IMG/VR virus record: IMGVR_UViG_3300043788_000134
Location: 1-64,000 of that record
DNA from: a virus
Reading direction: 5' to 3' (one strand)
DNA length: 64,000 bases
The notes below the pieces were generated by a model. The model saw only the letters and a list, made by a program, of their open reading frames with translations. It ran no database searches and was not told the DNA's origin. The position numbers were made by a program, and so were the translations under genes. Of the stretch, positions 5,767 through 34,566 are shown in pieces. How positions within the stretch are numbered: position 1 is the stretch's first letter; each line of letters opens with the position of its first letter.

Positions 5767-5812
5767 GGTGACCGATAGTCCTCACAGCACCGCTCCGCTC
5801 TCATGACCCAAC
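5767..5812 (+). repeat. TGACC-box intergenic element, class B1
   Basis: GGTGACCGATAGTCCTCACAGCACCGCTCCGCTCTCATGACCCAAC. Its CCAAC end abuts the stop of 5813-6160. Antisense to the local genes. Confidence 0.85.
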
Positions 5813-6174: not shown

Positions 6175-7470
6175 TTAGGTCGAAGATTGCGCATTGCCGA
6201 AGATCGGCACGGTATTGAGCGGCGTACCCGAAATCATGTTCCACACGCCGACGTTCGATATCACAGTCAGCCGCACAACGCCATTAGTCGTGGCGGCATT
6301 GGTGATCGGCGTTCCACCCCCGGCCGCGGATAGTTGGATCGTACCGCGCACGTCGCCCGTGGTATTGGTGGCAGGCGAACCCGTGGTGGACACTGCGGCC
6401 GTAAAGCCGACGTTGGACACGACCGCCGTTGCACCGGCATAGACCAAAACCTGCGAGGCAAAATCAGCCCGGATCGGGAAGCCAAACACATCGCCCACCC
6501 CGACCGTGACCGTCGAAGTCGTGCCAAGCACCGTGTTGCTGATCGACGAAATGTATTTGAACGCCTTCTTGCCATAAGCAATTGCCGTCGTGGTGTTCAA
6601 TTCGACCGCGATTTGTTCGGTCATAAGTTGCCGCCACACGTCGTAGCCGGTCACGAGAATTGTCGCGGTGCCGACCGAGGTCCCTGACGGCTGGACTTCA
6701 AGATAAACATTACGCGCCAAGGCTTCGGCCGGATTGTGCATCCGGTATAACCCAGCTTGGATGTTTGGATTGACCGAAACCGGCACCGGACTTTGCGGGC
6801 CATAATTTGCCGTCGGCGGATAGAGTGTCGCACCATACAAGGCCGCTTGCCCAACCGGAGCGGAAATCGCGGTCGCGGGCGCATTCGACACCGTGATCGT
6901 CGTAAAGTTGGTCGAAGAAATTCCCAGGACCTGGGTGAATAGACCGGTCGTTCCCGCGGTATTGCCGCAGTTCGCGATGTAAATCCACTGACCCAGCGTG
7001 AACTTGGTGTTGTCGTACACCTGGACGGTCGTGGAATTCGCAGTCGTGGTGGCACCGGTAAAACCAAAGTCAAGCGCGATCGGAACGGTAACGACGCTGC
7101 TCGTGCCCTGCGGCACAATCGGCACGTTCAAGGCAATCGCGCAGGCCGGCGACGAAGCATTCTGCACCGGAGCCGAAACCAGCGTCAGCAAGCCGGTCGC
7201 GGCCACGCTCGCCGCCGCGACGATGATGTTGGACGCCGTCGCCATCGGAATAGCGTCGATGGTGGGCGGCGTCGGCAAGCCCATGAACGCTGGCTGGCGC
7301 CCAGGCGCAGTGCCATCCTTGGCAAACGGGAATGCGCGGATATCCTGAAAACCCGCGCCTTGGTAGAACGCCGACGGCCCATCCAGCGGGCCGACGCTGG
7401 CGGTCGTGCCGGCATCAACCTCCAGCGCGCCCATCGCGCTCAGGGGACCGCGGAAGTTTGAATCAGCCAT
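6175..7470 (-). CDS. virion structural protein (431 aa; capsid-associated by position)
   Basis: ORF track. Lies directly downstream of the capsid candidate. A/T/G/V-rich. Confidence 0.6.
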   Translation of the reverse strand: MADSNFRGPLSAMGALEVDAGTTASVGPLDGPSAFYQGAGFQDIRAFPFAKDGTAPGRQPAFMGLPTPPTIDAIPMATASNIIVAAASVAATGLLTLVSAPVQNASSPACAIALNVPIVPQGTSSVVTVPIALDFGFTGATTTANSTTVQVYDNTKFTLGQWIYIANCGNTAGTTGLFTQVLGISSTNFTTITVSNAPATAISAPVGQAALYGATLYPPTANYGPQSPVPVSVNPNIQAGLYRMHNPAEALARNVYLEVQPSGTSVGTATILVTGYDVWRQLMTEQIAVELNTTTAIAYGKKAFKYISSISNTVLGTTSTVTVGVGDVFGFPIRADFASQVLVYAGATAVVSNVGFTAAVSTTGSPATNTTGDVRGTIQLSAAGGGTPITNAATTNGVVRLTVISNVGVWNMISGTPLNTVPIFGNAQSST

Positions 7471-7508: not shown

Positions 7509-8423
7509 TTACGATGTTGGAAATTCGCCCCACGCCGCGCGAGGGTCGTTATATCCGAATGAATAGCGCTCGTAAGCTTTCACGAGGAGGTTGTCGGTGA
7601 TGTTGTCTACCCACATATCGCTTTCATACGGGATACGCATCATGTGAATCAGCCCCTCGATATTCGTGGTCAGGAACCACGCGAAGTTCGAGGTCAAGAA
7701 GTCAAGCACGATATGCCCTTCCGGCAGGCCGCCGCTCAAGGTCAAGATCGCGTTCACGTCGTTGTCCGCAGTGCCGGGCCGCAGTTCGGTTTTGGTCAGG
7801 CGGATCGCGATGGCTTCCAGGTTCGGCGGCACGACGAGCCGGCGGGCGCGAGACATGATGCGCAGCCCGCGTTCATTGACGAACTGGGTGCGGACGTTGG
7901 TCATGTCAGCGAGCAGCGTCGATTCGTTCAGGCTTTTCGGCGTCGATGACGTATTGGCCCAGGTGCCACCGTCGAATGGATGCGCGGTGGAAAACAGCGA
8001 CACGCCGTCGCCAATGATCGAGGAATTGTACACGTTGCCGAGATTGAGGATATTGGCGCCCTGGATTTCCTTGAACTGGGCGAACGCTTCCTGCAGTTTC
8101 AGATTGGTTGGATTGAACTGCGCCTTGTAGAGATTGTCGTCGATCATCTTGCGGGTGACGGCGTAACCCAGCGCGACTTCGATATGCACGAACGCCCAGG
8201 TCCAGCGTTCGCCGGGGTTGTTGTCGAACTGGGTGGCGGCGCCTTCGTCTTTCAAAAACGGCAGCGCGACAAACGCCATCTGGGTCGAGCGTTCCACCGC
8301 CATGTTGGACTTGTGGGTGGTGAACACTTTGTCCCATTGTCTCGGAATCATTTCGTATGAGCCGCGGACATCGAACAGTCCCGGCAGGAGTTCCGAACGA
8401 ATATTTGCTAATGCGACGGGCAT
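7509..8423 (-). CDS. major capsid protein candidate
   Basis: ORF track, 304 aa. Size and position in the head module fit, and the sequence looks like tailed-phage major capsid families from memory. No search was run. Confidence 0.55.
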   Translation of the reverse strand: MPVALANIRSELLPGLFDVRGSYEMIPRQWDKVFTTHKSNMAVERSTQMAFVALPFLKDEGAATQFDNNPGERWTWAFVHIEVALGYAVTRKMIDDNLYKAQFNPTNLKLQEAFAQFKEIQGANILNLGNVYNSSIIGDGVSLFSTAHPFDGGTWANTSSTPKSLNESTLLADMTNVRTQFVNERGLRIMSRARRLVVPPNLEAIAIRLTKTELRPGTADNDVNAILTLSGGLPEGHIVLDFLTSNFAWFLTTNIEGLIHMMRIPYESDMWVDNITDNLLVKAYERYSFGYNDPRAAWGEFPTS

Positions 8424-8437: not shown

Positions 8438-9040
8438 TTACAGGCCGGAACGAAGGATTTGATTGTTGAAGCGGACAATGACCCAGTTGTAGTTCGTCGT
8501 CGGGTCGGAACCGTTGCCGACGCCGGGGAACAGCGAATAGACCACGAAGGGCAAGCCGGAGGCCGTGGTGCCCGTGGTCGTGGCGATGGTCGATTGATCG
8601 ACCGTCATTACCGAATAGCCTTGGCCGGTCTGTGACGCGGTAAAGCCGCCCGTGGTGTAGTTGATGAAATTCCCGATGTTCGACGAGACGATGGCGGTGG
8701 CCAGCGTTGCGACCTTGAACAACGCGCCGGGCGAATCGATCACGTAGGCGGTGGCGTCCTGGGCTGCGGCGTTGCCGGGCCAGAACGGCGACCATTGCGG
8801 GGTTTGGCCCGACAGCTGATAAACGCAACCGACGAAGATGCCCTCGATCGGAAGCGTGGTCGATGAATTGCCCTGGATGATATAAGCCGACGTGGCGTTG
8901 GCGCGCTGCACGACATCGCCGAATTGGATGGCCGTCGTATTGCTTTTGAGGATGCCGCGCGTCGATTGCTGATAGTCGGCCATAAAGCCGGGGAGGTAGC
9001 CCCAATGTTCAAAGCCGAACTGTGATTGAGTATTTGCCAC
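8438..9040 (-). CDS. capsid-module structural protein (decoration/second capsid protein?)
   Basis: ORF track, 200 aa. GTG start with GGAG upstream. Immediately upstream of the capsid candidate. Confidence 0.55.
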   Translation of the reverse strand: MANTQSQFGFEHWGYLPGFMADYQQSTRGILKSNTTAIQFGDVVQRANATSAYIIQGNSSTTLPIEGIFVGCVYQLSGQTPQWSPFWPGNAAAQDATAYVIDSPGALFKVATLATAIVSSNIGNFINYTTGGFTASQTGQGYSVMTVDQSTIATTTGTTASGLPFVVYSLFPGVGNGSDPTTNYNWVIVRFNNQILRSGL

Positions 9041-9144
9041 GGCAAACTCCGAGCGGGGTTTTTATGACCCGACCCGGCAGGCGCTGCCAAGGCATCGAGG
9101 GGGTGGAATCGAACCGGCGCGGCTCGATCAGATAATGATGGATG

Positions 9145-9171
9145 AAGATATTATTTGCGGGCGAGTGTCAA
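9145..9171 (-). promoter_or_regulatory. sigma70-like promoter candidate (TTGACA-N15-TATCTT)
   Basis: Minus strand reads cTTGACActcgcccgcaaataaTATCTTc. It sits between element 9202-9251 and the start at 9040. The spacer is short. Confidence 0.3.
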
Positions 9172-9201
9172 GCGGGTTGTGGATAAGTTTTTTGGATCAC
9201 G

Positions 9202-9251
9202 CTTTGGGTCACGAGAGGGCCTTCGTGGAAGCAGCACCGGATTCGGTCAAC
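9202..9251 (-). repeat. TGACC-box intergenic element, class B2
   Basis: Reverse complement is GTTGACCGAATCCGGTGCTGCTTCCACGAAGGCCCTCTCGTGACCCAAAG. An extra partial terminal motif tttggatcacg lies at 9191-9201. Sense to 8438-9040. Confidence 0.85.
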
Positions 9252-9252
9252 G

Positions 9253-11052
9253 TCACGCCGCCACGCCAAACGTCGCGGTTTCCAGATCGCTCACGGCAAG
9301 CCCGAACGCCGCGAATCGATCGGCCCAGTACGGCGACGTGTGCAATCGCTCGCGCAATCGCGCGATAAGCTGCACCGGCACTCTGCCGTGCAAGCGATAT
9401 TCGAGGACGCCCAAGAAATAGAGCGCAAAACCGTTTTCTGGCGAGATCACTTCCGACAGCACCGTGAGATTTTGCATCTGTTGCTTGATCTTGACCGGCC
9501 GCGTTTCGTTCAAGAGCCGCCGAAAATTCAAATGATAGTTCATGTAGAACCAGATATCGGTTATCTGCTCGCCGGTCGGAATATCGTCTGGCTTGATTTT
9601 GGCGAAGGCTTCGCGAAAGCCGAGATGCGCGAGTATCAGACCTTGTTCGATCTCGGTTTGCTTGCCGTAAGAGCCGCCGGCAAAGCGCAACTCCTTCGAT
9701 CCCACGTCCTGGATAAGACCTTGCGCCACCATCGCATCATAAATAGGCGTATTCGGGAGCGGTTGCAGAGGGCTGATTCGATACCAATCACAGTCCATCT
9801 CGCGCGCCACATTGATCGTGTCGTGGACCATGCCGAGGGTTTCATTCGGAAAGCCCACCATCAAAAGGACGGACGTGTGAATTTGCTCATGCTCGCGGAA
9901 AATTTGCGCCGCCTCGATGAAGTTTTCGAGCGTGCCTGGTTTTTTGACTTGGCGCAAGATCGTCCGGTTGCCTGATTCCATGCCGATATTAACCGCGATA
10001 CAGCCAGACTCGGCCATCGCGGCAACAAGAGCCGGCGTACACGACGACGCGATGATGCCGTTGGTGGCGTCCCAGGTGACATCGATCTTTCTGCGGACAA
10101 TCTCATTGAACATTTGCGTGGCGCGGTGCTCGTCCTTCAAAAGATCGTCATCGAGCCACATGAAGTGGCCGACGCCGTAATCGTTCACCAGCATTTCGAT
10201 TTCATCGACGACGTTCGTATAGTCGCGTTGGCGCACGCCCTTGCCGTTGAAATTCCGCACCGAGCAGAACGTGCACTGCGCGCGGCATCCGCGATTGGAC
10301 AACACCGTGGCAAAAACCGTATCCTTGGGCTTGAAGCAATAAAACGCGCCGATCGTGCCGTGCTTGGAATGTTCGGGAATGTCGAGGAGGTCGAATGCCG
10401 GGATGATCGAGATATCTTCGGGCACGCAGTCGGCCGTTAGATGGATGCGTTCGGGTTTGTTGATGATGAGTTGAGCAAGGTCGGTCACGGGACGCAGCCG
10501 ATTCACGGCTTGGACAAAGCGCGGCAACGACTCGTCGGCTTCGCGAAGGAACGCGGCGGAGACACAGGGAATGTCATCAAGCACACGCTCCACGTCGTTC
10601 GTCACATGCACGCCACCGATGGCGACAGGAGCGTAAGCCGCGGCGAAGGTGCACACGTCCTTGAGCGACTGATGACTCATGGTGAACATGCAGCCGACGC
10701 CGATCAGGTCCGGTGCGGTGTCATAGATGGCCTTGAACAAAGCCCACTTCCACGTCGCCGTGTGGTCAAAGGCCCCGCTTCCCCGCGCCGCCTTGAGCAC
10801 GATATGATTCAGGTTCAGAATCTGCATATCCACGTCGATGGCGCGAAGCTGTTGCGCCAGCAACGCCAGTCCGTAGGGAGGGTAATTGGTGTAGCGACCG
10901 CGCTTGGCGATTTCAGGACGGAACAGGTTGGCATCCGCGTCGGGGGGGTTGACCAGAAGCACGCGGCGGATTTGGCGGGCGGGAAATAGCGCAGAGAGAG
11001 CCGCGTCCACAGCGGTTGGGTCATGAGAGCGGAGTGGCGGGGATAGGGTCAT
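9253..11052 (-). CDS. B12-binding-domain radical SAM enzyme (class B-like)
   Basis: 599 aa. N-terminal RVLLVNPP...YPPYGLALLA resembles a cobalamin-binding domain. CRAQCTFC is a CxxxCxxC cluster motif. The ATG lies inside element 11015-11060. Confidence 0.8.
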   Translation of the reverse strand: MTLSPPLRSHDPTAVDAALSALFPARQIRRVLLVNPPDADANLFRPEIAKRGRYTNYPPYGLALLAQQLRAIDVDMQILNLNHIVLKAARGSGAFDHTATWKWALFKAIYDTAPDLIGVGCMFTMSHQSLKDVCTFAAAYAPVAIGGVHVTNDVERVLDDIPCVSAAFLREADESLPRFVQAVNRLRPVTDLAQLIINKPERIHLTADCVPEDISIIPAFDLLDIPEHSKHGTIGAFYCFKPKDTVFATVLSNRGCRAQCTFCSVRNFNGKGVRQRDYTNVVDEIEMLVNDYGVGHFMWLDDDLLKDEHRATQMFNEIVRRKIDVTWDATNGIIASSCTPALVAAMAESGCIAVNIGMESGNRTILRQVKKPGTLENFIEAAQIFREHEQIHTSVLLMVGFPNETLGMVHDTINVAREMDCDWYRISPLQPLPNTPIYDAMVAQGLIQDVGSKELRFAGGSYGKQTEIEQGLILAHLGFREAFAKIKPDDIPTGEQITDIWFYMNYHLNFRRLLNETRPVKIKQQMQNLTVLSEVISPENGFALYFLGVLEYRLHGRVPVQLIARLRERLHTSPYWADRFAAFGLAVSDLETATFGVAA

Positions 11053-11060
11053 CGGTCACC
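11015..11060 (-). repeat. TGACC-box intergenic element, class B1
   Basis: Reverse complement is GGTGACCGATGACCCTATCCCCGCCACTCCGCTCTCATGACCCAAC. It contains the ORF start of 9253-11052. Confidence 0.85.
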
Positions 11061-11072
11061 GTTCTATTGAGC

Positions 11073-11285
11073 TCAAACTACGCCGATGTAAGCGGCCTTA
11101 AACCGTTGATAACTATCCTCCAGTACAGCCGCATCCAGATGATCAAAGGCGTTGAACCGTAAATGGGGATATTTCTCTAGGGTTGCCTCATGGCCACATT
11201 TGCCATCCTCTGGAACGCCGCGACGCAGTTCTTCGAGGCAAAAGGGGCACACGTCGTTGAACGGATCGAACGCGGTCATTGCCAT
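11073..11285 (-). CDS. small Zn-ribbon-like protein
   Basis: ORF 11073-11417. Start ATG 11285 follows GGGGGAGG. CPFC...C.H motif. C-terminal similarity to 15655-15930 (YPHL/FPHL...Y motif). Confidence 0.5.
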   Translation of the reverse strand: MAMTAFDPFNDVCPFCLEELRRGVPEDGKCGHEATLEKYPHLRFNAFDHLDAAVLEDSYQRFKAAYIGVV

Positions 11286-11319
11286 TACTGTGCCTCCCCC
11301 TGATTTTACCATGGTCAGC

Positions 11320-11357
11320 GTTGACCGCACCGGAATCCCTGCGGTTCCGTGACCAAA
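11320..11357 (+). repeat. TGACC-box intergenic element, class A2
   Basis: GTTGACCGCACCGGAATCCCTGCGGTTCCGTGACCAAA. It ends 2 nt from the stop of 11360-12280. Antisense. Confidence 0.85.
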
Positions 11358-11359
11358 TC

Positions 11360-12280
11360 TTAATTCACCGGGAGACGTTCCGCAACACGTCCGCCGAACG
11401 ATTGCCGGAATCGCCACCGATCGATGCGTGCCACCTTGTAGGCAATAACATCAATCGACGGCGTGAATTTCGTCGCCATACCTCCGGTCGGCTTCAACGA
11501 CGCCCGCAACGGCCGAGGTTCGCTATAGACGATTTCGGAGAACGGCACCGGCTCAAACGCCATCCGGGCGCCCAACAGGCTTTGCTCTTTGACCATTTGC
11601 GCCAATTCCGCCCGCGACACCGCCGGTTGACTGACCAGATGATAAATCCGTCGCGTCACGGGCTTTGTCGCAATTTCCAATAAGCCTCTCGCCGTATCGT
11701 TCACGTCCGATACATTGAAAATATTATCCACCGCCATGCGCGCGTTCGGTTTGAGCAGCGTTTCATAGCATTGCGCCACCGGGCAGTGCTGGCCTTGGAC
11801 CCATCCCACGTTCCATCCCGTGCGCGCCACGACGCCGCGCGGCGTGCACAGCACATGACTTTCCACGGCAGCTTTCAATGCGCCGTAGACATTGAGCGGG
11901 CGTCGTGCGGTATCTTCGGAGCAATCCCCCGCTTTACCGTCAAACACCTGGTCGGTAGATAAAAACACCACCCGCGCGCCGGCGTCGTCCGCATCATCGA
12001 CGAGGTTCTTGCTGGCGTGCAGATTCAAAAGCCACGCCGCTTCCTGATTCGCGTAAATCCACGCAGGAGCGATATAGCCCGCAAGCAGCACCACCACATC
12101 GTCAGCATTCAAGTCGGGAACCACGGTGCGCAGCGACGCGGTTCGCATGTCGAACGGCACGAGGCCGTAGCGCACACGGCTTAAAGCGGTGCCAATGGCT
12201 GGTACACGCGCGGTGCGGGCCTCTTGGTGAAGCACACTGCCGATGACGCCGGAGGCACCGACGATGATGATTCGGGTCAT
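11360..12280 (-). CDS. NAD(P)-dependent sugar-nucleotide reductase/epimerase, RmlD-like
   Basis: MTRIIIVGASGVIGS Rossmann motif at the N-terminus. STDQVFDG and YGALK (YxxxK) motifs. The ATG is the ATG of the element's CATGACCC end. Confidence 0.75.
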   Translation of the reverse strand: MTRIIIVGASGVIGSVLHQEARTARVPAIGTALSRVRYGLVPFDMRTASLRTVVPDLNADDVVVLLAGYIAPAWIYANQEAAWLLNLHASKNLVDDADDAGARVVFLSTDQVFDGKAGDCSEDTARRPLNVYGALKAAVESHVLCTPRGVVARTGWNVGWVQGQHCPVAQCYETLLKPNARMAVDNIFNVSDVNDTARGLLEIATKPVTRRIYHLVSQPAVSRAELAQMVKEQSLLGARMAFEPVPFSEIVYSEPRPLRASLKPTGGMATKFTPSIDVIAYKVARIDRWRFRQSFGGRVAERLPVN

Positions 12281-12317
12281 GAGAGCGGAGCGGCGAGTGA
12301 GAGGATTATCGGTCACC
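12271..12317 (-). repeat. TGACC-box intergenic element, class B1
   Basis: Reverse complement is GGTGACCGATAATCCTCTCACTCGCCGCTCCGCTCTCATGACCCGAA. Its ATG is the start codon of 11360-12280. Confidence 0.85.
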
Positions 12318-12329
12318 GTTGCTCACAAA

Positions 12330-12575
12330 TTATTGCGGCCGACTTCGACGACAACAATCTTGCTCGGATCGACCATTTCGCTCAGCGTCTCGACGGCGTT
12401 CTTGTCCCGGTCGTACGGCTTTGATCGCCGCTTCGGCGCGTCTGCCATAGAACGCCAGATCGTGAGTGTAGGCAGCGCGGCCGATCAGGAACGAAATGAC
12501 AGAATAGATACCGCCAATGTCGCCCAAGAGGCGGCCGGTGGAAGTTCCGAGAACGGCGTGAGTTGGAAATTTCAT
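12330..12575 (-). CDS. small hypothetical phage protein
   Basis: ORF 12330-12614. ATG 12575 follows AGGAGGG. Sequence MKFPTHAVLGTSTGRLLGDIGGIYSVISFLIG... Confidence 0.5.
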   Translation of the reverse strand: MKFPTHAVLGTSTGRLLGDIGGIYSVISFLIGRAAYTHDLAFYGRRAEAAIKAVRPGQERRRDAERNGRSEQDCCRRSRPQ

Positions 12576-12603
12576 AGCTTCCCTCCTATTACAAACAACC
12601 GCG

Positions 12604-12642
12604 GTTGACCGCACCGTAATCCCGGCCTCTCGTGATCCAAAG
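12604..12642 (+). repeat. TGACC-box intergenic element, class A1
   Basis: GTTGACCGCACCGTAATCCCGGCCTCTCGTGATCCAAAG. It ends 1 nt from the stop of 12644-13594. Antisense. Confidence 0.9.
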
Positions 12643-12643
12643 A

Positions 12644-13594
12644 CTACTCCGCCGCAACCTCAAATCCCCGATGCAGATCGCTCGCCGGCTTATTCCACAC
12701 CGTACAGCCGGAGCACATATCGATCCGATCGCGATTCCCCGCAAGATGGAGTTCGCGCCGCTCATTCTGCAGCTTGCTTTGCCACAACTCCGCGATGGAA
12801 TGCGTCGCCACATCGCCCAGCGGATGTTTGTTGTTGTAATCGACATTGCACATCGGCACCTTGCCGTCGGCAAAGATCACCATGAGCGACCACAGCGCCA
12901 CGCAAGGCAGTTTGTTCGGCCTTTCCGGATCAAAGCCAGCCAACTGGCCGCCCCAATTGTGAATATTGAGAAAATAGCAGCGGTCATTATCGCGCAACAA
13001 CGGTTTCCAATAGGCATAGAACGCCGGAAACTCATCGCGATTGGATTCCTGGCGAATCATCCGCACCCAGATCGAGCATGACGGGCGGATTTTGTCGCGC
13101 ATTTTGATAAACCGCAGAGCGTTCTTCATCACGGTCTCAAAATTAAGCCGCACGCGGATTGCTTCAAACACGGCCTTGTCGAGACTGTCAATCGACAGCA
13201 CCACTTCATCGATTCCAGCCTCAAGAATCGCCGTGGCGCGATCCTCGTCCAGCAATTCGACGTTGGTGGAAATGCCGACGTTCTTGATGCCGCCGCCCTT
13301 CAATCGCTTGATGCGCTTCGGCAGCTTCTTGTCCAAAAGCGGTTCGCCGTCGCGATAAAGCGCCACGCGCTTGACATCGTGCTTGTGCGCGCAAATCTCC
13401 GCCGCGATGACCTCGAACAGCGCGTCGTTCATGCTCGGCGTATGGCGCGTCCAATCGTCGATCGTGCACATCGGACAGCGCGCGTTGCAGGCGTTCACCG
13501 TCTCGATCTCGAAATAGAGCGGAAAATCGGAAAGCGACGCGAACGGCCGCTCCGGCGCGATGCGATTTGACAGGTAGGTTTCGAGCGGCGTCAT
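12644..13594 (-). CDS. radical SAM enzyme with SPASM/twitch-like C-terminal Cys cluster
   Basis: ORF 12644-13834. Start ATG 13594 overlaps the upstream stop (ATGA). CNARCPMC is a CxxxCxxC motif. C-terminal C...C...CSGC cysteines. Confidence 0.8.
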   Translation of the reverse strand: MTPLETYLSNRIAPERPFASLSDFPLYFEIETVNACNARCPMCTIDDWTRHTPSMNDALFEVIAAEICAHKHDVKRVALYRDGEPLLDKKLPKRIKRLKGGGIKNVGISTNVELLDEDRATAILEAGIDEVVLSIDSLDKAVFEAIRVRLNFETVMKNALRFIKMRDKIRPSCSIWVRMIRQESNRDEFPAFYAYWKPLLRDNDRCYFLNIHNWGGQLAGFDPERPNKLPCVALWSLMVIFADGKVPMCNVDYNNKHPLGDVATHSIAELWQSKLQNERRELHLAGNRDRIDMCSGCTVWNKPASDLHRGFEVAAE

Positions 13595-14424
13595 TCCGCC
13601 GCCACCGCCTGTGGCTGCTGTTGCGGCTGCGCTTCGACCTGCTGCGCGGGAGGAAACGGCGTCGCCACCTGGAAGATTTGCTTTTGCATCGCCTCTTGCA
13701 TGGCCGCCTGTGCTTCGGCTTGCGCCTGCTGCTGCGTAATGTGCTGCAGGTAGCACGCCGAATAATCGTGCATCCCGACGTGCGAAATCGGATAGGCGAT
13801 GGCCGCCCACACCTGACCGCCGCAACGGTTCCAACGGATGCAGAACGATAAATCCTCCGACACGATCCCGCGTTCGGGAATGTCCAGCTTCTCAAAGGCG
13901 CGAATCAATCGCGTGGCGCCGGCCTGTTTCATAAGGCTTGCGGCCGGATGAAGATCGAGCCGCGTATCCACGAGTTCGGGAAATTGCTGCAGCATCTTCG
14001 TCACAACATCGCGACGAATCAGCGTGCAGCCCATGCCGACGCCTTCCACCAGCATAAAATTACCCCGGCGTTCCGTGGTCGGACCGCCGGAGCCCGATCC
14101 CGCCCATGACGTGGGATAGCGCCGTTGCGGATAGATCGTGCCGACCACGGGTTCGTCGAACAAAATCATGTCGAGAACCATTTCGGGCGAAAAGCCCATA
14201 TCGGAATCGATCTGCAGGAAATAATCGACTTGCGGCATCGTATCGTACCAGATCGTCAGTGCCATCGATCGCAGTTCGGCGATGTCGGGGAATGACAGCG
14301 CGGACACTGAGGCATTGATCGCCTTCGCCGCGAGCATCTGTTGCAATTGCAGCGTGGTCAGGAACGTCGTCGTCGTCAGCGTGTTGCCGAAGGCGGGGAT
14401 GAAGGTGAAAACGTGCTTTGCCAT
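13591..14424 (-). CDS. glycosyltransferase-like protein (GT-A type)
   Basis: ORF 13591-14565. Start ATG 14424 (MAKHVFTFIPAFG...). LQIDSDMGF is a DxD-like motif. The ORF's upstream extension is just element translation. Confidence 0.55.
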   Translation of the reverse strand: MAKHVFTFIPAFGNTLTTTTFLTTLQLQQMLAAKAINASVSALSFPDIAELRSMALTIWYDTMPQVDYFLQIDSDMGFSPEMVLDMILFDEPVVGTIYPQRRYPTSWAGSGSGGPTTERRGNFMLVEGVGMGCTLIRRDVVTKMLQQFPELVDTRLDLHPAASLMKQAGATRLIRAFEKLDIPERGIVSEDLSFCIRWNRCGGQVWAAIAYPISHVGMHDYSACYLQHITQQQAQAEAQAAMQEAMQKQIFQVATPFPPAQQVEAQPQQQPQAVAAE

Positions 14425-14439
14425 TTTATGCTCGGTTTT

Positions 14440-14478
14440 GTTTGGGTCACGAGAGGCCGGGATTACGGTGCGGTCAAC
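14440..14478 (-). repeat. TGACC-box intergenic element, class A1
   Basis: Reverse complement is GTTGACCGCACCGTAATCCCGGCCTCTCGTGACCCAAAC. It lies 16 nt upstream of ATG 14424. It is a near-perfect inverted copy of 12604-12642. Confidence 0.9.
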
Positions 14479-15421
14479 CGGCGTAAGCGCGAGGAAACGA
14501 AACAATCGTATTCGACGGCGACAGCGCCTCGCGGAACGCGCTCGCTTGCGCCTTGTCCATCCCAAAATCGTCGAGCAGATGCGGAATCATGTCGATGGCG
14601 CGCTGCTTGATGCGCAGATAGCGCTCGTCTTTCGGATTAAGCCCGGACATCATGTCGAGTTGCCGCGACTGGGCCCGCACGGTGTCGTTGACCCACTTGG
14701 AACGGTATTCGATCAGCGGATGATGCCGCAGCAGAATGTCCTTATGCCATTGCGGCGTATTGAAGTCAGGATCATTGATGATCTTGTGCGCTTCGGCGCG
14801 GCGCTTGAGATAAGCCGCATCGAACCACGTCGCCCACCAGCCCGGCTCGCGCATTTCCATGGTTTTGCCGGCACCGGATTGGTCTGTCCCCACATCGGCA
14901 AACGAAATACGCCCGATCATTCGCCCCACGTCGTCGGTCCAATGGTCGGCAAACCAATACGGGAAATATTCCGGCTGCAGCTTGTTGTCGTTTTTCTCCG
15001 CCCATTTTGCGGTATAGGCGATCACGCTCGGAAACGAAGCGTTTGCCATCCGGCCATAGACAATGCCGATGCCGTCAGGAAAACGTAACGCGGCCTCCAG
15101 CAGCAATTCGTCGGTATTCGGCGTGATATAAACGTCATCGTCGGACGCATTGAGGTAAAGATCGCCAGGCTCCGACAATCCGCGATTCCATTTTCCGGCT
15201 ACGGTATCGTCGCGCTTTTTGACGTTGATCGTAATGCGCGGATCGAGCTTGCCTTCGTCGTATGCCGCGCCAAGCATCGCCACCGTAGCGAAGTCGTCCG
15301 AATCACACTGCACGATGACCTTGGTATCCGCCCGCGAAAAGCACGCCATGTGGCGCGGCAGCGTCCCCATCAACTGTTGCGCACGATTGCGCGTCGCCAC
15401 GCTTACAACAAGTCGCGCCAT
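14474..15421 (-). CDS. glycosyltransferase family 2-like protein
   Basis: 315 aa. N-terminal LVVSVATRNR strand and NASDDDVY acidic motif are typical of the GT-A fold. Confidence 0.55.
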   Translation of the reverse strand: MARLVVSVATRNRAQQLMGTLPRHMACFSRADTKVIVQCDSDDFATVAMLGAAYDEGKLDPRITINVKKRDDTVAGKWNRGLSEPGDLYLNASDDDVYITPNTDELLLEAALRFPDGIGIVYGRMANASFPSVIAYTAKWAEKNDNKLQPEYFPYWFADHWTDDVGRMIGRISFADVGTDQSGAGKTMEMREPGWWATWFDAAYLKRRAEAHKIINDPDFNTPQWHKDILLRHHPLIEYRSKWVNDTVRAQSRQLDMMSGLNPKDERYLRIKQRAIDMIPHLLDDFGMDKAQASAFREALSPSNTIVSFPRAYAG

Positions 15422-15432
15422 GTTTTACCTCC

Positions 15433-15645
15433 CTATTTCCAACGTCCAAGGTCTAGCTGTTCCGGCGGCGCCGTAGGCGCTTCCATGACCACACCATCGA
15501 TCACCATAGGTGGTCGCGCCAATTGCGGCCCGCACTTCACGACACAATAGCCGTCGGCATCATACGTGCCGACAAAATATTTTCGCTCGCTATTGAACGG
15601 CATTAAGAGACACGGAGTTCCAACTAACTCGGCAGGGAACGGCAT
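15433..15645 (-). CDS. hypothetical protein
   Basis: ORF track, 70 aa, within the sugar-modification cluster. Confidence 0.4.
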   Translation of the reverse strand: MPFPAELVGTPCLLMPFNSERKYFVGTYDADGYCVVKCGPQLARPPMVIDGVVMEAPTAPPEQLDLGRWK

Positions 15646-15654
15646 AAACGACTC

Positions 15655-15930
15655 CTACGATTGGGGACTCAAATAGTGTGTATCCGTTGCACGTTCCACA
15701 CCGTACAGTGATTTATAAAAATCATCCGCTTGCTTCATCAGGTGCGGGAATACCTCTTTGGTGCAATCAAAACACCATAAATCCTCGCCACACACGCCAA
15801 CAGATGCACCACCGAAACAGGGTGATACATTAATCTTCCATGCGGTCATGAGTGTTGTCTCGGCACGACATCGGTCACAGTAATATGACGCTGGCACTTC
15901 CCGCTTGGCTATTTTTTTATCAAGAAACAT
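15655..15930 (-). CDS. small Cys-rich Zn-ribbon-like protein
   Basis: ORF 15655-16026. Start ATG 15930 (MFLDKKIAKRE...). CDRC...CFDC motifs. Paralog-like to 11073-11285. Confidence 0.5.
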   Translation of the reverse strand: MFLDKKIAKREVPASYYCDRCRAETTLMTAWKINVSPCFGGASVGVCGEDLWCFDCTKEVFPHLMKQADDFYKSLYGVERATDTHYLSPQS

Positions 15931-15951
15931 CGCACATCCCTTCCACGATTG

Positions 15952-16000
15952 GGTGACCGTGATGCGGCTATGCTTGCACCGCGAGTGAATGATCCACAAC
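15952..16000 (+). repeat. TGACC-box intergenic element, degenerate class B
   Basis: GGTGACCGTGATGCGGCTATGCTTGCACCGCGAGTGAATGATCCACAAC. It overlaps the stop of 15968-16546. Antisense. Confidence 0.6.
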
Positions 16001-16546
16001 CTTTTTTTGCGACCGCCACGGATCAAAAAAGCTTCCGTTCCATCGCGTCAGTCCGACCTTGCGCGCCACACCGATATCGACGACCATTCCCGCGAAATCC
16101 TCAACGTCCTCGCTGGAAATCCGCGAGGGCCGCACGATCGCCGCAGGGACCGTGCGCAGATACGACTCAACATGTGCCTTTTGCCGTCCATAAGCCGTGG
16201 CACCAGCTTTCTCCACGGCCTCCGACGAAATGAATACAATAAATGCGCCGGTTTGCACATAATGTTGCGCAATCTCTATCTGCGCGTCCACATTCACCCG
16301 CCACGATAACGGATTCGATTCACAGTCCACAAATTTGCTCATCGCGCCGACCAGATAAATCGTGCCACTCGTTATCATCGGCAGATATTGCCAATCGATC
16401 GCCGCGAGATCAAGAAACACCGGATCGGGCCAAGATGGAAAGGCGCCGACCTTGCGGCTCGTCGCTTGCCACGCCAAGTGACGGCGCTGTAATTCCTGTC
16501 GCAATGCCATTCCGACCAGGCCATCACCCCCAATCACGAAATGCAC
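15968..16546 (-). CDS. short NAD(P)-binding SDR/epimerase-like protein
   Basis: MHFVIGGDGLVGMAL Rossmann motif and YGRQK (YxxxK). 192 aa. Confidence 0.6.
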   Translation of the reverse strand: MHFVIGGDGLVGMALRQELQRRHLAWQATSRKVGAFPSWPDPVFLDLAAIDWQYLPMITSGTIYLVGAMSKFVDCESNPLSWRVNVDAQIEIAQHYVQTGAFIVFISSEAVEKAGATAYGRQKAHVESYLRTVPAAIVRPSRISSEDVEDFAGMVVDIGVARKVGLTRWNGSFFDPWRSQKKVVDHSLAVQA

Positions 16547-16549: not shown

Positions 16550-17170
16550 TCACTCTCCGGGTTCGGCGAGCGGCAAGGACGGCGATGGAATATCGAGCGC
16601 CGGATCAATCGACATGCGGAGATTGCCGCCGGTGCCGCGATATTTTGGATTCATCGAGTCCTCGGGCATATTGCGCGCCAGCCCCGCTTTGCCGCCCATC
16701 AGCGATTCGTCGCGGTCGCGCATCTGTCGCCGCGCCGCCGCTTCTTCTTCCTGCGCCGCTTCCAACGTCATGCTCAGCGGCCGTTCTTCGAGCCTCATGC
16801 CGTCGCGGATGATGTCGCCTTTTTTGCCGACAGGCACGAAGCGGCCGGGATGTCGCTCCGCCGGCACGGGGCGCCAGCCGTTTTCGTACATCTGCATCGC
16901 CTGACCGACCGTCAAATCCTCGCGGTTATAGACGGTCACCGTGTTCCATTGGTAGCTGTAGCCCTTGGGAATCAGTTCCTTGGGGATGTGGAATTGATCG
17001 ATGCCGGCTTGACGATGACGTGTCAGCACATTGCCGTCACGGTCGCGATGCACGACTTTCGCCTCACGCGTCGGCTGGCGCGTCGAACCGCGAGGGCGCC
17101 CGCGGCGTGGCGCAGTTGGCTGTTCCGCGGTTTCGAGCGCGGCTTCGTCGATGCTTTCGGCTTCGGTCAT
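16550..17170 (-). CDS. head-module protein, paralog-like to 17167-17529
   Basis: ORF 16550-17215. ATG 17170 overlaps the upstream stop. Shared motif YQWN...GW.PVPA..HP. RGRPRGS basic stretch. Confidence 0.5.
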   Translation of the reverse strand: MTEAESIDEAALETAEQPTAPRRGRPRGSTRQPTREAKVVHRDRDGNVLTRHRQAGIDQFHIPKELIPKGYSYQWNTVTVYNREDLTVGQAMQMYENGWRPVPAERHPGRFVPVGKKGDIIRDGMRLEERPLSMTLEAAQEEEAAARRQMRDRDESLMGGKAGLARNMPEDSMNPKYRGTGGNLRMSIDPALDIPSPSLPLAEPGE

Positions 17171-17529
17171 GAGCAGGTTTCCTTTGAGATAAGATCGAAC
17201 AACCATCGAAGCCACAGCCGGCGGGCTACGCGGCGAACAATCACGACTTGCGTTACCGTAACTGGCTGCGGCTTTTCGACAATGATCGGGGACGTTTCCA
17301 CAATACGCGCGGCGGTTTTGTCATCCCCAATCCGTCTGAATTCCGGCGGGGGCTTGTTCGGATGCCACTTCGCCGGTACTGGCACCCAGCCGTCGGCAAG
17401 CATCCTAAAATAGCTTTCTTGCACTTCGCCCAGAACTTTTTTAGCATTCCATTGATAGGTCATCCCCACAGGCACCATGCTTTTTGGAAAGTCAAACGGA
17501 TCACTGCGTTTAACTGGCGTAAGACTCAT
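17167..17529 (-). CDS. head-module protein with YQWN...GWVPVPAKWHP motif
   Basis: ORF track, 120 aa. Confidence 0.5.
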   Translation of the reverse strand: MSLTPVKRSDPFDFPKSMVPVGMTYQWNAKKVLGEVQESYFRMLADGWVPVPAKWHPNKPPPEFRRIGDDKTAARIVETSPIIVEKPQPVTVTQVVIVRRVARRLWLRWLFDLISKETCS

Positions 17530-17535: not shown

Positions 17536-18540
17536 CTACTGCTGAATGAAATTCATCGGATCGTAGCGGCCTTCTGCGGTCATGGCCTGCTTGCGGCGGG
17601 CCATCTCCTGGACCCCGATAGGATCGCCTTTCTTGAACCGCTTCTGCCCCGACGGATCGTCGTAGTTCCACGTCAAGGTGCCGTCGGTCGCCGCTGCGGC
17701 CTCGCCTTTGCTCAATCGCACCACGCTTCCGCCTCCCGTGGTTTCACCCGCTGTGGTATTGACCGGCGCAACCGGGGCCGGCTTGGCGCGTGTCTTGCCA
17801 TTAGTTGCCCCATTCGTCTTGTTGGTTGCGTCCTTCAAACCCAAAAACTTTTCGATATGGGCGAAGTATTCCGGCGTATCCCGCGCATAGCCCTCCGCCA
17901 CCGCGTCGCTGTCGGCTGCGTTGATCTTCGCGGCGCGCCGCGAATCGGTGCCGAGTGCAAGCGCGCGGGCTTCCACTGGATGCTCGCGGAGCCATTTCTG
18001 TGTCTCGGGGGTGCGTGTGGAAAGAAATATTTCAAGCGGATCGCCCTGCGGCTGGCGCTGCGTTTCCTGCTGGCGTTGCTCCGGCTTTTGCGTCTTGGCG
18101 ATTTCCAGATCGCTCTTGGCTTCGTCGAATCTAACGATGCGTGCCTGCGCCGCCGCAAGCCTCTCTTGTGCCTCGGCGGCGCGCTTCCAGTCGCCCGCCT
18201 CTTGCGCGGCAATGTAATCCGCCTTTGCCGCCGCCGATTCCGTCTTGGCAGCTTCCAGTCCGGTTTCGACGGCGCCGAGTCGCGATTCGACTACTTCCGT
18301 CCGTGAGGTTTCGACCTCGCGCTCCGCCGCCTGGCGGCCGCGTTCGGCTTCGCCGGCGCGGCGTTCCGCCGCCTCGCGCGCCGCACGTTGGCGCTCGCTC
18401 TCAGCCTGCAGTTCGTCGTACTGCGCCTTGAGCTCGGCGACAGGATCGGGCGCGGTCTTCGCCTGGGTCTTTCCCGTTTCGCCTGCGTTTTCTTCCGGCG
18501 CGGGCGCTTCGATTTCGACGACAATATCTTCGTCAGCCAT
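17536..18540 (-). CDS. scaffolding-like coiled-coil protein
   Basis: ORF 17536-18555. ATG 18540 follows GAGGA. The E/A/R/Q-rich N-terminal half is typical of scaffolds. Lies between portal and capsid genes. Confidence 0.55.
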   Translation of the reverse strand: MADEDIVVEIEAPAPEENAGETGKTQAKTAPDPVAELKAQYDELQAESERQRAAREAAERRAGEAERGRQAAEREVETSRTEVVESRLGAVETGLEAAKTESAAAKADYIAAQEAGDWKRAAEAQERLAAAQARIVRFDEAKSDLEIAKTQKPEQRQQETQRQPQGDPLEIFLSTRTPETQKWLREHPVEARALALGTDSRRAAKINAADSDAVAEGYARDTPEYFAHIEKFLGLKDATNKTNGATNGKTRAKPAPVAPVNTTAGETTGGGSVVRLSKGEAAAATDGTLTWNYDDPSGQKRFKKGDPIGVQEMARRKQAMTAEGRYDPMNFIQQ

Positions 18541-18720
18541 TGCGGTCCTCATCATCCTCGCGCGTCAATTGCGCGGTAAAGCCGATTGCGTTAATTCGCT
18601 CGTCGCGGCGCAGGCGCGGACAAATAAAACCGTCTCGCACCGGATTGGAATAGCCATAGCACACACGGTTATCCCTTTTGGTCGGACGCCCGCTTGGATG
18701 TCTTGTTTTTGGCGCACCAT

Positions 18721-19155
18721 TCACCAGAAAATCTCCGGGTCGGACACGACCATTTTCACGTTGACATCCTCGAACAGCCGGCACGGCACTTCGCGGATGT
18801 AAAGTTGCAGTCCGTCGGAGGGGCGAGTCAACACCCAATCGCCTTCTTTCACCGCCTTTCCGTGAAAGAATACGCCGCGCGGCGGATCATCCTTGAACGC
18901 GCCGGGGCCGACCTTGATGACGAGGCCGATCGATCCTTGAAATTGGTCTTCCTGCAGGTTCTTGTCGGTGCGGAGAATCTTCGTGCCAGCGTGATATTTT
19001 GATCCCGCATAAGTCGTTACCAACACCTGCGAGTGCAGCACTTGTTCATCGGCGATGTTGCCGAGTTCCTTGAGAATCGCCATCTTGGGCGACTTCCCGT
19101 CGGACACCGCCTCCACAATATCGCGGAGCTTACCGACCGCATTTGAACGCGCCAT
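18721..19155 (-). CDS. GroES/Cpn10-like co-chaperonin candidate
   Basis: 144 aa. ...VLVTTYAG...IGLVIKVGPGAF...KEGDWVL... resembles the GroES beta-barrel pattern. No search was run. Confidence 0.45.
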   Translation of the reverse strand: MARSNAVGKLRDIVEAVSDGKSPKMAILKELGNIADEQVLHSQVLVTTYAGSKYHAGTKILRTDKNLQEDQFQGSIGLVIKVGPGAFKDDPPRGVFFHGKAVKEGDWVLTRPSDGLQLYIREVPCRLFEDVNVKMVVSDPEIFW

Positions 19156-19380: not shown

Positions 19381-19422
19381 CACTGGATCACGAGAGACAG
19401 GGATTACGGTGCGGTCACCAAC
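19381..19422 (-). repeat. TGACC-box intergenic element, class A
   Basis: Reverse complement is GTTGGTGACCGCACCGTAATCCCTGTCTCTCGTGATCCAGTG. Sense to 19155-19373. Confidence 0.85.
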
Positions 19423-19649
19423 AGCTTGTCGCGGTCAAAAACAACAGCAACAAATTCCCAGTTAGTGCCCGGCACTTTAAGCTCCATCATCCCTCTGGCA
19501 ATAGCTATCAGTTCGTTCCTTATCATTAGAGCGGATGGTGTTGGGCGACGACAAAAACTCACTCGGAATCGTGCGGTGATTTGAACGATCGCGCGCGTCC
19601 ACCAACAGCCAGTACAATGTGTACATTTCGATCACCATATTCCACTCAA

Positions 19650-23190: not shown

Positions 23191-23228
23191 GAGAGGTTGT
23201 GCCGTTTGCAGCACCGGATTCGGTCACC
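23180..23228 (-). repeat. TGACC-box intergenic element, class B2
   Basis: Reverse complement is GGTGACCGAATCCGGTGCTGCAAACGGCACAACCTCTCGTGATGCCGAA. Sense to the portal gene. Back-to-back with 23244-23283. Confidence 0.85.
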
Positions 23229-23243: not shown

Positions 23244-23283
23244 GTTGACCGTACCGTAATCGCTCCGCTCTCGTGATCCAAAG
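23244..23283 (+). repeat. TGACC-box intergenic element, class A
   Basis: GTTGACCGTACCGTAATCGCTCCGCTCTCGTGATCCAAAG. Its end abuts the stop of 23284-23463. Antisense. Confidence 0.85.

Positions 23284-33870: not shown

Positions 33871-33880
<10 letters not shown>
33581..33880 (+). CDS. hypothetical protein
   Basis: ORF track, 99 aa. GTG start after CAGGAG. Confidence 0.55.

Positions 33881-34566
<686 letters not shown>

Follow-up and report, generated by a model that had tools for sequence, protein, structure and literature searches.

At positions 9253-16546 of a 64,000-nucleotide stretch of viral DNA (positions 1 to 64,000 of the IMG/VR record IMGVR_UViG_3300043788_000134, hereafter the window), genes for radical S-adenosylmethionine (SAM) enzymes, reductases, glycosyltransferases, and small proteins form an island inside the head-gene block of a tailed phage. 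We propose, with a probability of roughly one-half, that this island is a virion-surface glycosylation module, which makes use of a phage-tailored sugar and is expressed together with the head genes. The most informative fact in this context is that the slot taken up by the island is hypervariable across the whole phage lineage, with the glycosyltransferases retained and the accompanying sugar-pathway genes exchanged.

In the route that we envisage, a nucleotide sugar supplied by the host would be remodeled by the island enzymes; neither a nucleotidyltransferase nor a 4,6-dehydratase is encoded in the island itself. A B12-dependent radical SAM enzyme and an RmlD-like reductase, a unit taken from alphaproteobacterial polysaccharide clusters, could C-methylate the sugar, or act on an unactivated carbon by some other radical step, before a keto group is reduced, and a BtrN-like SPASM/twitch radical SAM enzyme with a short-chain dehydrogenase/reductase (SDR) could oxidize or epimerize a sugar hydroxyl by radical chemistry. 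While heads are assembled in the cytoplasm, two soluble glycosyltransferases, GT2 and GT1, would then transfer the product onto virion proteins that are exposed, the likeliest acceptors being the gpD-like protein p200, the major capsid protein, and the Ser/Thr-rich protein p431.

A Hypervariable Slot in the Head-Gene Block

The island comprises ten minus-strand open reading frames (ORFs) with hardly any intergenic space (Table 1). Upstream of it lie the genes for a GroES-like protein, a scaffold-like protein, and the portal, and downstream those for p200, the major capsid protein, and the 431-aa protein p431; the island runs in the same direction as these head genes and is packed closely against them, with stops and starts that overlap or adjoin. 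The preliminary description of this DNA had placed ten same-strand genes between the scaffold and GroES-like genes and the capsid genes, and had pointed to the presence of such enzyme chemistry inside the head-morphogenesis region. The ORF list and the families of the flanking scaffold-region, decoration, and capsid genes agree with both statements. The GC content of the island and its GC content at third codon positions (GC3) are in line with those of the remaining phage, and scans for promoters and terminators found no more sites than in shuffled sequence. None of the ten island proteins contains a transmembrane-like segment (maximum below 1.9 in a 19-residue Kyte-Doolittle window). In comparison with the sister phage L002, the ratios of nonsynonymous to synonymous substitution rates (dN/dS) are 0.10-0.31, and thus the island genes are kept by purifying selection.

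Comparing synteny across related phages, as the preliminary description had proposed, we found the same type of island in the same place in L002, whose capsid protein is 94% identical to that of the window, and in the P0004 contig. In other relatives, with capsid proteins 89-93% identical, GT1 is kept, GT2 is kept wherever the contig extends far enough upstream, and the cargo differs. Counting the window and about 15 related contigs, GT1 and GT2 lie between the scaffold-region and decoration/capsid genes, in two architectures, GT2-cargo-GT1 and GT2-GT1-cargo. Four contigs (L012, L014, L019, and L020) carry an HldE-like kinase/nucleotidyltransferase, a GmhA-like isomerase, a different SPASM radical SAM enzyme, and an acetolactate-synthase-like thiamine diphosphate (ThDP) enzyme, joined by a SAM-dependent methyltransferase in the last three of these and not in L012. 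E1/transketolase-like subunits replace the ThDP enzyme in L015, L021, and L069, an extra GT-B-type protein is found in L068, and the cargo of L070 consists of a DegT aminotransferase, a DUF6016 protein, and a hexapeptide acyltransferase. The SPASM enzymes of the window and of the heptose-type islands are 24.7% identical (E = 0.002-0.004), which is similarity at the superfamily level only, and the radical SAM enzyme is no constant component of the slot.

Since alternative sugar pathways occupy a single slot, related phages would show different capsid glycans. More tentatively, we suggest that these uncultured phages of roughly 65-73 kb, probably on Rhizobiales, display strain-specific "capsid serotypes". 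Complete host-derived cassettes for heptose, ThDP-branched, amino, or B12/SPASM radical-SAM-tailored sugars would be swapped in a slot prone to recombination, and two unnamed GT-A families would attach the products to the gpD-like decoration protein or the capsid. The lineage-wide exchange also illustrates cleanly how phages capture polysaccharide genes from their hosts.

Two Radical SAM Enzymes and Their Probable Partner Reductases

Protein families were assigned by profile searches against Pfam, NCBIfam, and PHROGs. The four enzymes discussed in this section had all been named in the preliminary description, as a B12-binding radical SAM enzyme (CRAQCTFC), an RmlD-like reductase, a SPASM-type radical SAM enzyme (CNARCPMC), and a short SDR, and all four assignments stand. 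The first matches the B12-binding domain PF02310 over residues 55-178 (38.8 bits, cutoff 32.1) and the Radical_SAM domain PF04055 (73 bits, cutoff 29.5), with the CxxxCxxC motif inside the latter; by these profiles it is a class B radical SAM enzyme, predicted to bind cobalamin. Placement in a subfamily, which the preliminary description had hoped for, went as far as the radical SAM families themselves: no characterized NCBIfam subfamily (PhpK, BchE, HpnJ, HpnR, BzaD, MgmA, TsrM, or AprD4) reaches its cutoff, the best score being 97 bits for PhpK (cutoff 600), with BchE at 91 (481), HpnJ at 86 (577.6), and AprD4 at 37 (500). The best match in the Protein Data Bank (PDB) is 9ccb, the protein glutamine C-methylase MgmA (PMC11796369), with AprD4 and TsrM weaker. 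Homologues number more than 1400, and metagenomic ones are up to 75% identical. Outside confirmed phage contigs, the nearest metagenomic homologues are 73-75% identical, with cellular context confirmed up to 73%, and those from named sources, whether genomes or metagenome-assembled genomes (MAGs), of Tagaea, Paramagnetospirillum, and Magnetovibrio are 60-66% identical.

The RmlD-like protein matches RmlD_sub_bind (PF04321; 96.8 bits, E = 1.5e-27) and has YGALK as its YxxxK motif. Its score against TIGR01214 (83.8 bits, cutoff 224) shows that it is not an equivalog-level RmlD, and a search for an rmlA/B/C-type context found no nucleoside triphosphate (NTP)-transferase, dehydratase, or epimerase family among the other ORFs of the window. 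Its best PDB sequence match is MAT2B (5.5e-13), slightly ahead of RmlD. MAT2B is the regulatory beta subunit of methionine adenosyltransferase; given this match and the fixed pairing with a SAM-consuming enzyme described below, the RmlD-like protein may have a role other than that of a reductase.

The pairing holds in cells as well as in phages. In all three cellular contexts (L003, L004, and L071), the RmlD-like gene lies directly upstream of the B12-dependent radical SAM gene, which is also the phage arrangement, with identities to the phage proteins of 36-43% for the RmlD-like protein (L003 and L004) and 61-73% for the radical SAM enzyme. The surrounding clusters contain genes for HldE-like, GmhA-like, split transketolase, DUF6016, methyltransferase, DegT, and UDP-glucose dehydrogenase proteins, together with NTP-transferase, carbamoyl-/sulfotransferase, GLF, ABC exporter, and GT2-family genes, and gene families of these clusters reappear in the alternative phage cargos. 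The shared order and the polysaccharide-cluster contexts identify the pair as a sugar-tailoring cassette captured from host-type loci. We also note that DUF6016 recurs beside the pair in the bacterial clusters, and that in the L070 phage island its gene lies between those for the DegT aminotransferase and the acyltransferase; it is probably an uncharacterized sugar-nucleotide-modifying enzyme.

The preliminary description had further offered a lipid or hopanoid-type modification, which would assign the B12-dependent enzyme a chemistry like that of HpnJ, HpnR, or ladderane-type enzymes. Such a role would have to be read from the HpnJ score given above, an 89-bit match to a lipid-biosynthesis B12-dependent radical SAM family (cutoff 360), and a 27.6-bit match to HpnR (cutoff 650), all lying far below their cutoffs and among many partial NCBIfam matches. 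Neither the window nor the cellular contexts of the orthologous enzyme, all of them nucleotide-sugar clusters, contain lipid or hopanoid genes. We find this role hardly credible.

The second radical SAM enzyme scores above cutoff for both Radical_SAM (PF04055; 55.1 bits, 1.3e-14) and SPASM (PF13186; 44.7 bits, 1.6e-11), although we count five cysteines in its C-terminal domain against the seven of a full SPASM motif with two auxiliary clusters (a twitch domain has one), and no NCBIfam subfamily matches at its cutoff. The best PDB sequence match of this C-terminal domain is BtrN (E = 8.3e-11), a twitch-domain radical SAM dehydrogenase of an aminocyclitol, and thus of a carbohydrate-like substrate. 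The short SDR, an RmlD/epimerase-like Rossmann protein (Pfam RmlD_sub_bind 1.6e-7, Epimerase 1.5e-4), is kept in L002 (41% identity) and in the P0004 contig. A short-SDR and SPASM radical SAM pair also lies upstream of the terminase and portal genes in four unrelated IMG/VR contigs with a P22-like portal (L006-L009), accompanied by either a PhyH-like dioxygenase or a CmcI/rhamnosyl-O-methyltransferase-like protein. That the two families travel together in unrelated viral contigs suggests a joint function.

We consider it improbable that the two radical SAM enzymes act on protein, in the manner of maturases of ribosomally synthesized and post-translationally modified peptides (RiPPs) or of capsid proteins, with C-methylation by the B12-dependent enzyme, cross-linking or oxidation by the SPASM enzyme, in each case of a head protein or small peptide, and a simple host sugar added by the glycosyltransferases. 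SPASM enzymes are typically peptide maturases, and the RiPP-type families ApyD, rSAM_ocin_1, and WgkB are among the weaker NCBIfam matches; among solved structures, however, the SPASM domain is best matched by BtrN, with its carbohydrate-like substrate. Similarly, while MgmA is a protein methylase, the orthologues of the B12-dependent enzyme stand in fixed operon order with the RmlD-like gene, in nucleotide-sugar clusters, in all three cellular contexts. Small ORFs that might encode a peptide substrate adjoin both radical SAM genes, but they vary in size and number among three phages, and one of them, Zn1, has no counterpart in L002. Finally, the alternative cargos of the slot (HldE, GmhA, DegT, acyltransferase) are clearly sugar pathways.

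Glycosyltransferases and Candidate Acceptors

GT1 has no Pfam, NCBIfam, or PDB sequence match, and its PHROG is annotated as "unknown function". The D73-x-D75 motif is invariant in 52 aligned sequences, E190-D191 is likewise invariant, and the C-terminal tail is variable and rich in Gln, Ala, and Pro. Its AlphaFold2 model has a predicted local distance difference test (pLDDT) score of 92.8, and a Foldseek search of this model against the PDB returned 80 matches at E <= 0.001, the best 50 of which are nearly all GT-A glycosyltransferases. The top neighbors are STIV A197, the glycosyltransferase domain of human LH3, COLGALT1, Mimivirus R699, and PBCV-1 A64R; those of LH3 and COLGALT1 are collagen hydroxylysine glycosyltransferases, and A64R is annotated as glycosylating the major capsid protein, although the likeness of GT1 to A64R and R699 is at the level of the fold only (10-14% identity). 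On the strength of the model, GT1 is firmly predicted to be a GT-A-fold, DxD-bearing glycosyltransferase.

In GenBank phages, tblastn with GT1 returned homologues of less than 30% identity alone, mainly in cyanophages. The closest cellular homologues, at 31-37% identity, belong to Bradyrhizobium, Xanthobacteraceae, and related MAGs, and at all five loci with adequate flanks (L022, L024, L025, L026, and L028) they adjoin a very long ORF (2400-3260 aa). That of B. lablabi encodes a LapA/RTX/VWA/cadherin adhesin, accompanied by its type I secretion system (TolC-like, ABC, and HlyD proteins) and a LapG-like protease. The position beside giant adhesins points to a protein acceptor, and suggests that the cellular homologues are an undescribed family of adhesin-glycosylating GT-A enzymes.

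The assignment of GT2 is more tentative. It matches Glycos_transf_2 (PF00535) at E = 0.0098 and 16.3 bits, below the gathering score of 23.3, and four of seven members of its family give such a sub-threshold match (best 8.3e-4), which is the sole family match. Its acidic motifs are invariant in the alignment, the protein is found in several island variants of the lineage, and searches of PDB sequences and of GenBank phages (tblastn) gave no match. Where the preliminary description had listed two GT-A-type proteins, GT1 is therefore borne out by its fold and DxD motif, and GT2 remains a probable member. A paralogous relationship between the two was considered and rejected, with no detectable relationship between their profiles in hhalign.

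Some viruses encode glycosyltransferases that add a variety of glycans to 5-hydroxymethylcytosine or 5-hydroxymethyluracil in DNA (bioRxiv 10.1101/2023.12.21.572611, PMC13326640), and this phage encodes a DNA methyltransferase (phrog_799), so that one could picture the island as placing an unusual sugar on a hypermodified base of the phage DNA in order to evade restriction. We regard this as very improbable. The island lies in the head block and not in the replication block, the structural neighbors of GT1 are GT-A enzymes directed at proteins or glycans and not DNA glucosyltransferases, and none of the 43 other ORFs scanned matches a TET/JBP dioxygenase, a dCMP/dUMP hydroxymethylase, or a thymidylate-synthase-like protein at Pfam E <= 1e-4 or PHROGs E <= 1e-5, thresholds that remote homologues could escape.

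As to the acceptor, the AlphaFold2 model of p200 (pLDDT 80.8, predicted template modeling score 0.81) has as its top Foldseek matches short (~150-165 aa) non-capsid chains, presumably decoration or cement proteins, from capsid reconstructions of Pam3, Sf11, and T1. It also matches the TW1 entry, which contains the major capsid protein and a capsid stabilizing protein, with gpD and SHP as weak matches. The p200 gene sits at the position of lambda gpD, immediately downstream of the island, and most relatives have GT1 as the gene just before those for p200 and the capsid protein. Across the lineage, identities are 46-77% for p200 and 37-64% for p431, against 89-94% for the capsid protein; p200 and p431 hence evolve much faster than the capsid protein, as would be expected of exposed proteins. 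No family or PDB sequence match was found for p431. A loop of p200 rich in Ser and Thr was rejected as an obligatory acceptor, since a loop-less variant (P0334) apparently co-occurs with both glycosyltransferases.

Virion Surface or Host Envelope

Among the roles listed in the preliminary description, glycosylation of virion proteins is thus the best supported and the lipid-type role is unsupported, while modification of host polysaccharide is a live rival, albeit one that we judge rather unlikely. On this alternative, the tailored sugar would be placed, on the cytoplasmic side of the membrane, on lipopolysaccharide (LPS)/O-antigen units, exopolysaccharide, or a surface adhesin, and would mask receptors rather than decorate virions, either for superinfection exclusion in lysogens or to stop progeny from adsorbing to lysing cells. 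The origin of the tailoring cassette in bacterial polysaccharide clusters, the surface adhesins that accompany cellular GT1 homologues, and the serotype-like variability of the cargo, as expected of surface-antigen genes, are all in keeping with it, and glycosyltransferases of temperate phages are known to alter host serotype (PMC12619734). However, the island has no membrane protein of the GtrA/GtrB/GtrC, Wzx/Wzy, or acetyltransferase type, and no transmembrane-like segment at all. A tyrosine recombinase gene is present in the phage, but the island lies about 26 kb from it, in the head block, and not in the position of an attachment-site-proximal moron. The composition of the island is phage-like, with terminator-like sites at chance frequency. 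A lineage member does occur in a Rhizobiales MAG contig, yet at 67 kb this contig amounts to about one whole phage genome, and hence is no proof of integration.

Several points weigh against virion glycosylation itself. The target is assigned from context throughout, and GT-A structural neighbors do not determine the acceptor class. The closest solved relative of the B12-dependent enzyme methylates protein (PMC11796369), the RmlD-like protein resembles MAT2B as well as RmlD, and GT2 gives only a sub-threshold GT2-family match. The P22-like-portal contigs that bear the short-SDR/SPASM pair gave no tblastn match to the GT1 or GT2 families. The uncultured phage MW202675.1 has p200 and capsid homologues and no island, so that the glycan, if any, would be dispensable for assembly. 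A conserved, promoter-like leader separates the island from the p200 and capsid genes, and co-expression and co-transcription with the capsid genes are accordingly assumed. Last, the tyrosine recombinase makes lysogenic conversion conceivable.

The leader lies in the 213-nt gap before the decoration-protein gene (9041-9252 in the window and 12338-12591 in L002). This conserved non-coding region contains CTTATCCACA..CTTGAC(A/C)C and TTGGCAGCGCCTGCCGGGTCGGG...CCCCGCTCGGAG, and probably provides the promoter and 5' untranslated region for the decoration and capsid genes, which are highly expressed.

Small Proteins and TGACC-Box Elements

The remaining island proteins are small. At the position of Zn1, no gene is called in L002 or in the bacterial cassettes, and the P0004 contig has a 62-aa ORF. 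Zn2 and the 70-aa protein have no family match in Pfam, PHROGs, or NCBIfam. The preliminary description had taken Zn1 and Zn2 for paralogous Zn-ribbon proteins; this is unconfirmed, with no BLASTP match between the two and the pattern CxxC...[Y/F]PHL alone in common. Of the two small proteins that it had called unknown, the 70-aa protein stays so, while the other carries Pfam DUF7736. The position of the DUF7736 gene is taken by a 72-aa ORF in L002 and a 123-aa ORF in the P0004 contig.

The TGACC-box element is bipartite, with box 1 [G/T]TGACCG, box 2 CTC[G/A]TGA[C/T]CCAA, and spacer classes of 36-37, 44-45, and 46-47 nt. The window holds about 24 copies, as compared with 0-2 in shuffles, all those checked lying at gene junctions, in both orientations to transcription, and often with stop or start codons inside a box. 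Seven such elements had been described as subdividing the island. We find six full elements there, belonging to a family spread over the whole window, and so the boxes are not island-specific. The Zn1 gene is flanked by the boxes at 11016-11059 and 11321-11357, and the Zn1 and DUF7736 genes are each enclosed by an inverted pair. In relatives the element is patchy, with nine in 14 kb of L070, and by the strict pattern it is absent from some others and from the bacterial loci. Because the boxes bracket Zn1, which lacks a counterpart in L002 and the bacterial cassettes, they appear to mark insertion or junction points. Terminators or hairpins were considered and rejected, as RNA folding shows no significant structure; the box may instead bind a protein or mark a recombination junction, and it resembles the PeSL cassettes of T4-type phages.

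The Phage, Its Relatives, and Other Features of the Window

The window represents a fragment of a tailed-phage genome, the parent JGI contig being 69,881 bp long. A megablast search with 15 kb of it found no match among GenBank phages. The closest GenBank phage by portal (46% identity) and capsid protein (60% identity to the annotated capsid protein) is the uncultured Manatee Spring phage MW202675.1, and the closest isolates are Pelagibacter, Roseobacter, and Caulobacter podophages at <=38.5% identity. Between its scaffold-region genes and its p200 and capsid homologues, MW202675.1 has about 1.6 kb of small ORFs alone, which makes the island accessory. Homologues of GT1 and p200 of at least 50% identity occur by the hundreds in metagenomes, many on contigs of 65-73 kb, and the lineage is thus abundant though uncultured. 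Its orthologues match Pfam SU10_portal and SU10_adaptor, one member is binned in a Rhizobiales MAG, and the host is probably a soil or freshwater alphaproteobacterium, with Rhizobiales likely. The tyrosine recombinase gene (42213-43163; Phage_integrase, 6e-8) lies among replication-type genes and adjoins that of a DHH/DHHA1 phosphoesterase (43160-44065); the recombinase may indicate a temperate phage, or it may serve in dimer resolution.

Table 1. Positions of the island genes, the neighboring head genes, and the TGACC-box elements in the window
Feature	Position	Strand	Remarks
p431	6175-7470	minus	431 aa; Ser/Thr/Ala/Gly-rich; just after capsid gene; second candidate acceptor or surface protein
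Major capsid protein, HK97-like	7509-8423	minus	phrog_371, Mu-like_gpT; orthologues match Phage_capsid_4
p200, gpD/SHP-like decoration (cement) protein	8438-9040	minus	200 aa; candidate glycan acceptor
B12-binding (class B) radical SAM enzyme	9253-11052	minus	599 aa (JGI 585 aa); CRAQCTFC
Zn1, Cys-rich	11073-11285	minus	70 aa; ATG at 11285; CPFC...CGH; ribosome-binding site (RBS); between RmlD-like and B12-dependent radical SAM genes
RmlD-like NAD(P)-dependent sugar-nucleotide ketoreductase	11360-12280	minus	306 aa; ATG at 12280
DUF7736 protein	12330-12575	minus	81 aa; Pfam DUF7736 6e-10; phrog_15963; RBS; between two TGACC-box elements
Radical SAM enzyme with SPASM/twitch auxiliary-cluster domain	12644-13594	minus	316 aa; CNARCPMC
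GT1, GT-A-fold glycosyltransferase (predicted)	13591-14424	minus	277 aa; phrog_1574
GT2, probable GT-A/GT2-family-like glycosyltransferase	14474-15421	minus	315 aa; invariant DDD, residues 94-96
70-aa protein	15433-15645	minus	ORF with RBS
Zn2, Cys-rich	15655-15930	minus	~91 aa; ATG at 15930; CDRC...CFDC; RBS
Short SDR	15968-16546	minus	192 aa; GxxGxxG and YxxxK; C-terminal substrate-binding half absent
Two paralogous small proteins	17167-17529 and 16550-17215	minus	between scaffold gene and island
Scaffold-like protein	17536-18555	minus
GroES-like protein	18721-19155	minus
Portal	20971-23214	minus
Large terminase	24019-25806	minus
TGACC box, 47-nt class	9204-9250	minus	in the gap before the decoration-protein gene
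TGACC box, 36-nt class	14442-14477	minus	GT2/GT1 junction; GT2 stop codon within box 1
Other TGACC-box sites (examples)	5768-5811, 11016-11059, 11321-11357, 12272-12316, 12605-12640, 19383-19438, 23245-23281, 27773-27809, 28424-28528, 31269-31305, 31750-31786, 32238-32281, 35170-35206, 49275-49310, 62277-62313, 62774-62820

The starts of the SPASM, GT1, DUF7736, RmlD-like, Zn1, and Zn2 genes in Table 1 are refined; before refinement, the ORFs ran from 12644 to 13834 (SPASM), 13591 to 14565 (GT1), and 11360 to 12316 (RmlD-like). The two paralogous small genes upstream of the island encode products with a common "YQWN...GW.PVP" domain (BLASTP 4e-11), and this pair is kept throughout the lineage and in MW202675.1.

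Elsewhere in the window there is a gene for tRNA-Arg (anticodon TCT) at 47882-47957. A probable IS1595-family insertion at 35849-37904, with 50-nt terminal inverted repeats that are 82% complementary and ends that abut TGACC-type boxes, holds a transposase gene (36926-37822; DDE_Tnp_IS1595 3.3e-35) and a low-GC3 passenger ORF of 347 aa (35932-36975), and another IS1595 transposase gene lies at 54374-55270. The ORF at 33718-34566, with a weak TrAA12-like match, codes for a long Gly-Ser/Gly-Tyr/Gly-Asp low-complexity repeat (GSGDGYGYGYGDG...), the repeats spanning 33881-34279 in 12- and 18-nt tandem units.

Comparison with Known Systems

Virus-encoded virion glycosylation is already known from chloroviruses, mimiviruses, and mycobacteriophages, as are phage glycosyltransferases that act on DNA or in serotype conversion. 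In the literature, we found no description of a head-operon slot in which a phage lineage swaps whole sugar-pathway cassettes, of a phage heptose or radical SAM capsid-glycosylation island, of this B12-dependent radical SAM family in polysaccharide synthesis, or of two unnamed GT-A families one of which is shared with adhesin loci. If the product of the island is placed on the capsid, the particles would bear variable, host-like exotic glycans, with a bearing on adsorption, grazing, recognition by immune or defense systems, and stability in soil and water. Furthermore, there would be a testable acceptor for two uncharacterized GT-A families, in phages as well as next to the giant adhesins of Bradyrhizobium and its relatives, and the widespread RmlD-like/B12-dependent radical SAM cassette would gain a compact model system.

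In tailed phages, virion glycosylation has so far been documented mainly in mycobacteriophages, where phage-encoded glycosyltransferases act in Che8 and cluster F phages (Freeman et al. 2023, Cell Host Microbe, cited in PMC12619734 and PMC11256854). As here, the genes are non-essential accessory genes for tailed-phage glycosyltransferases, and theirs are taken to glycosylate capsid and tail-tube subunits, with the glycans on the virion surface. The island differs in that its glycosyltransferase families are unrelated and unnamed, its host would be a Gram-negative alphaproteobacterium, sugar-tailoring enzymes (two of them radical SAM enzymes) are added, the cargo is swapped between close relatives, and the glycan is a predicted one. 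The mycobacteriophage systems use a few glycosyltransferases and host sugars.

The giant viruses (PBCV-1 A64R, Mimivirus; PMC9614988) likewise combine a virus-encoded GT-A enzyme with genes of nucleotide-sugar pathways. Unlike the present phages, they infect eukaryotes and have large genomes. Clade-specific glycosylation clusters of mimiviruses yield different glycans, and to our knowledge no giant-virus glycosylation cluster has a B12-dependent or SPASM radical SAM enzyme. For such enzymes, the parallels are BtrN, with respect to the SPASM C-terminal domain, and AprD4/AprD3, with respect to the pairing of a radical SAM enzyme with a reductase; AprD4 is a radical SAM enzyme with a B12-like domain that, with its partner reductase, deoxygenates a sugar. 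The island enzymes score far below these family cutoffs, however, and the substrates of BtrN and AprD4 are pseudo-oligosaccharide antibiotics rather than nucleoside diphosphate (NDP) sugars for glycoconjugates.

With gtrABC-type O-antigen glucosylation in serotype conversion, the island shares phage-encoded glycosylation genes for a surface glycan, and the phage has a recombinase gene elsewhere. The gtr systems consist of integral membrane proteins (a flippase, a bactoprenol glycosyltransferase, and a serotype-specific glycosyltransferase) encoded beside int/att, in contrast to the island, which has no membrane protein and lies in the head block at the above-mentioned distance from the recombinase. 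Bacterial O-antigen and capsule clusters such as L003, L004, and L071 share with the phage islands the order of the RmlD-like and B12-dependent radical SAM genes, the HldE, GmhA, transketolase, DegT, and DUF6016 modules, and the serotype-like variability, whereas the phage islands lack Wzx/Wzy or ABC export, a priming transferase, and chain-length genes, and their products are soluble. Should the tentative capsid-serotype proposal hold, radical SAM sugar chemistry would for the first time be seen in the service of a virus particle, and phages would have their own equivalent of O-antigen diversity.

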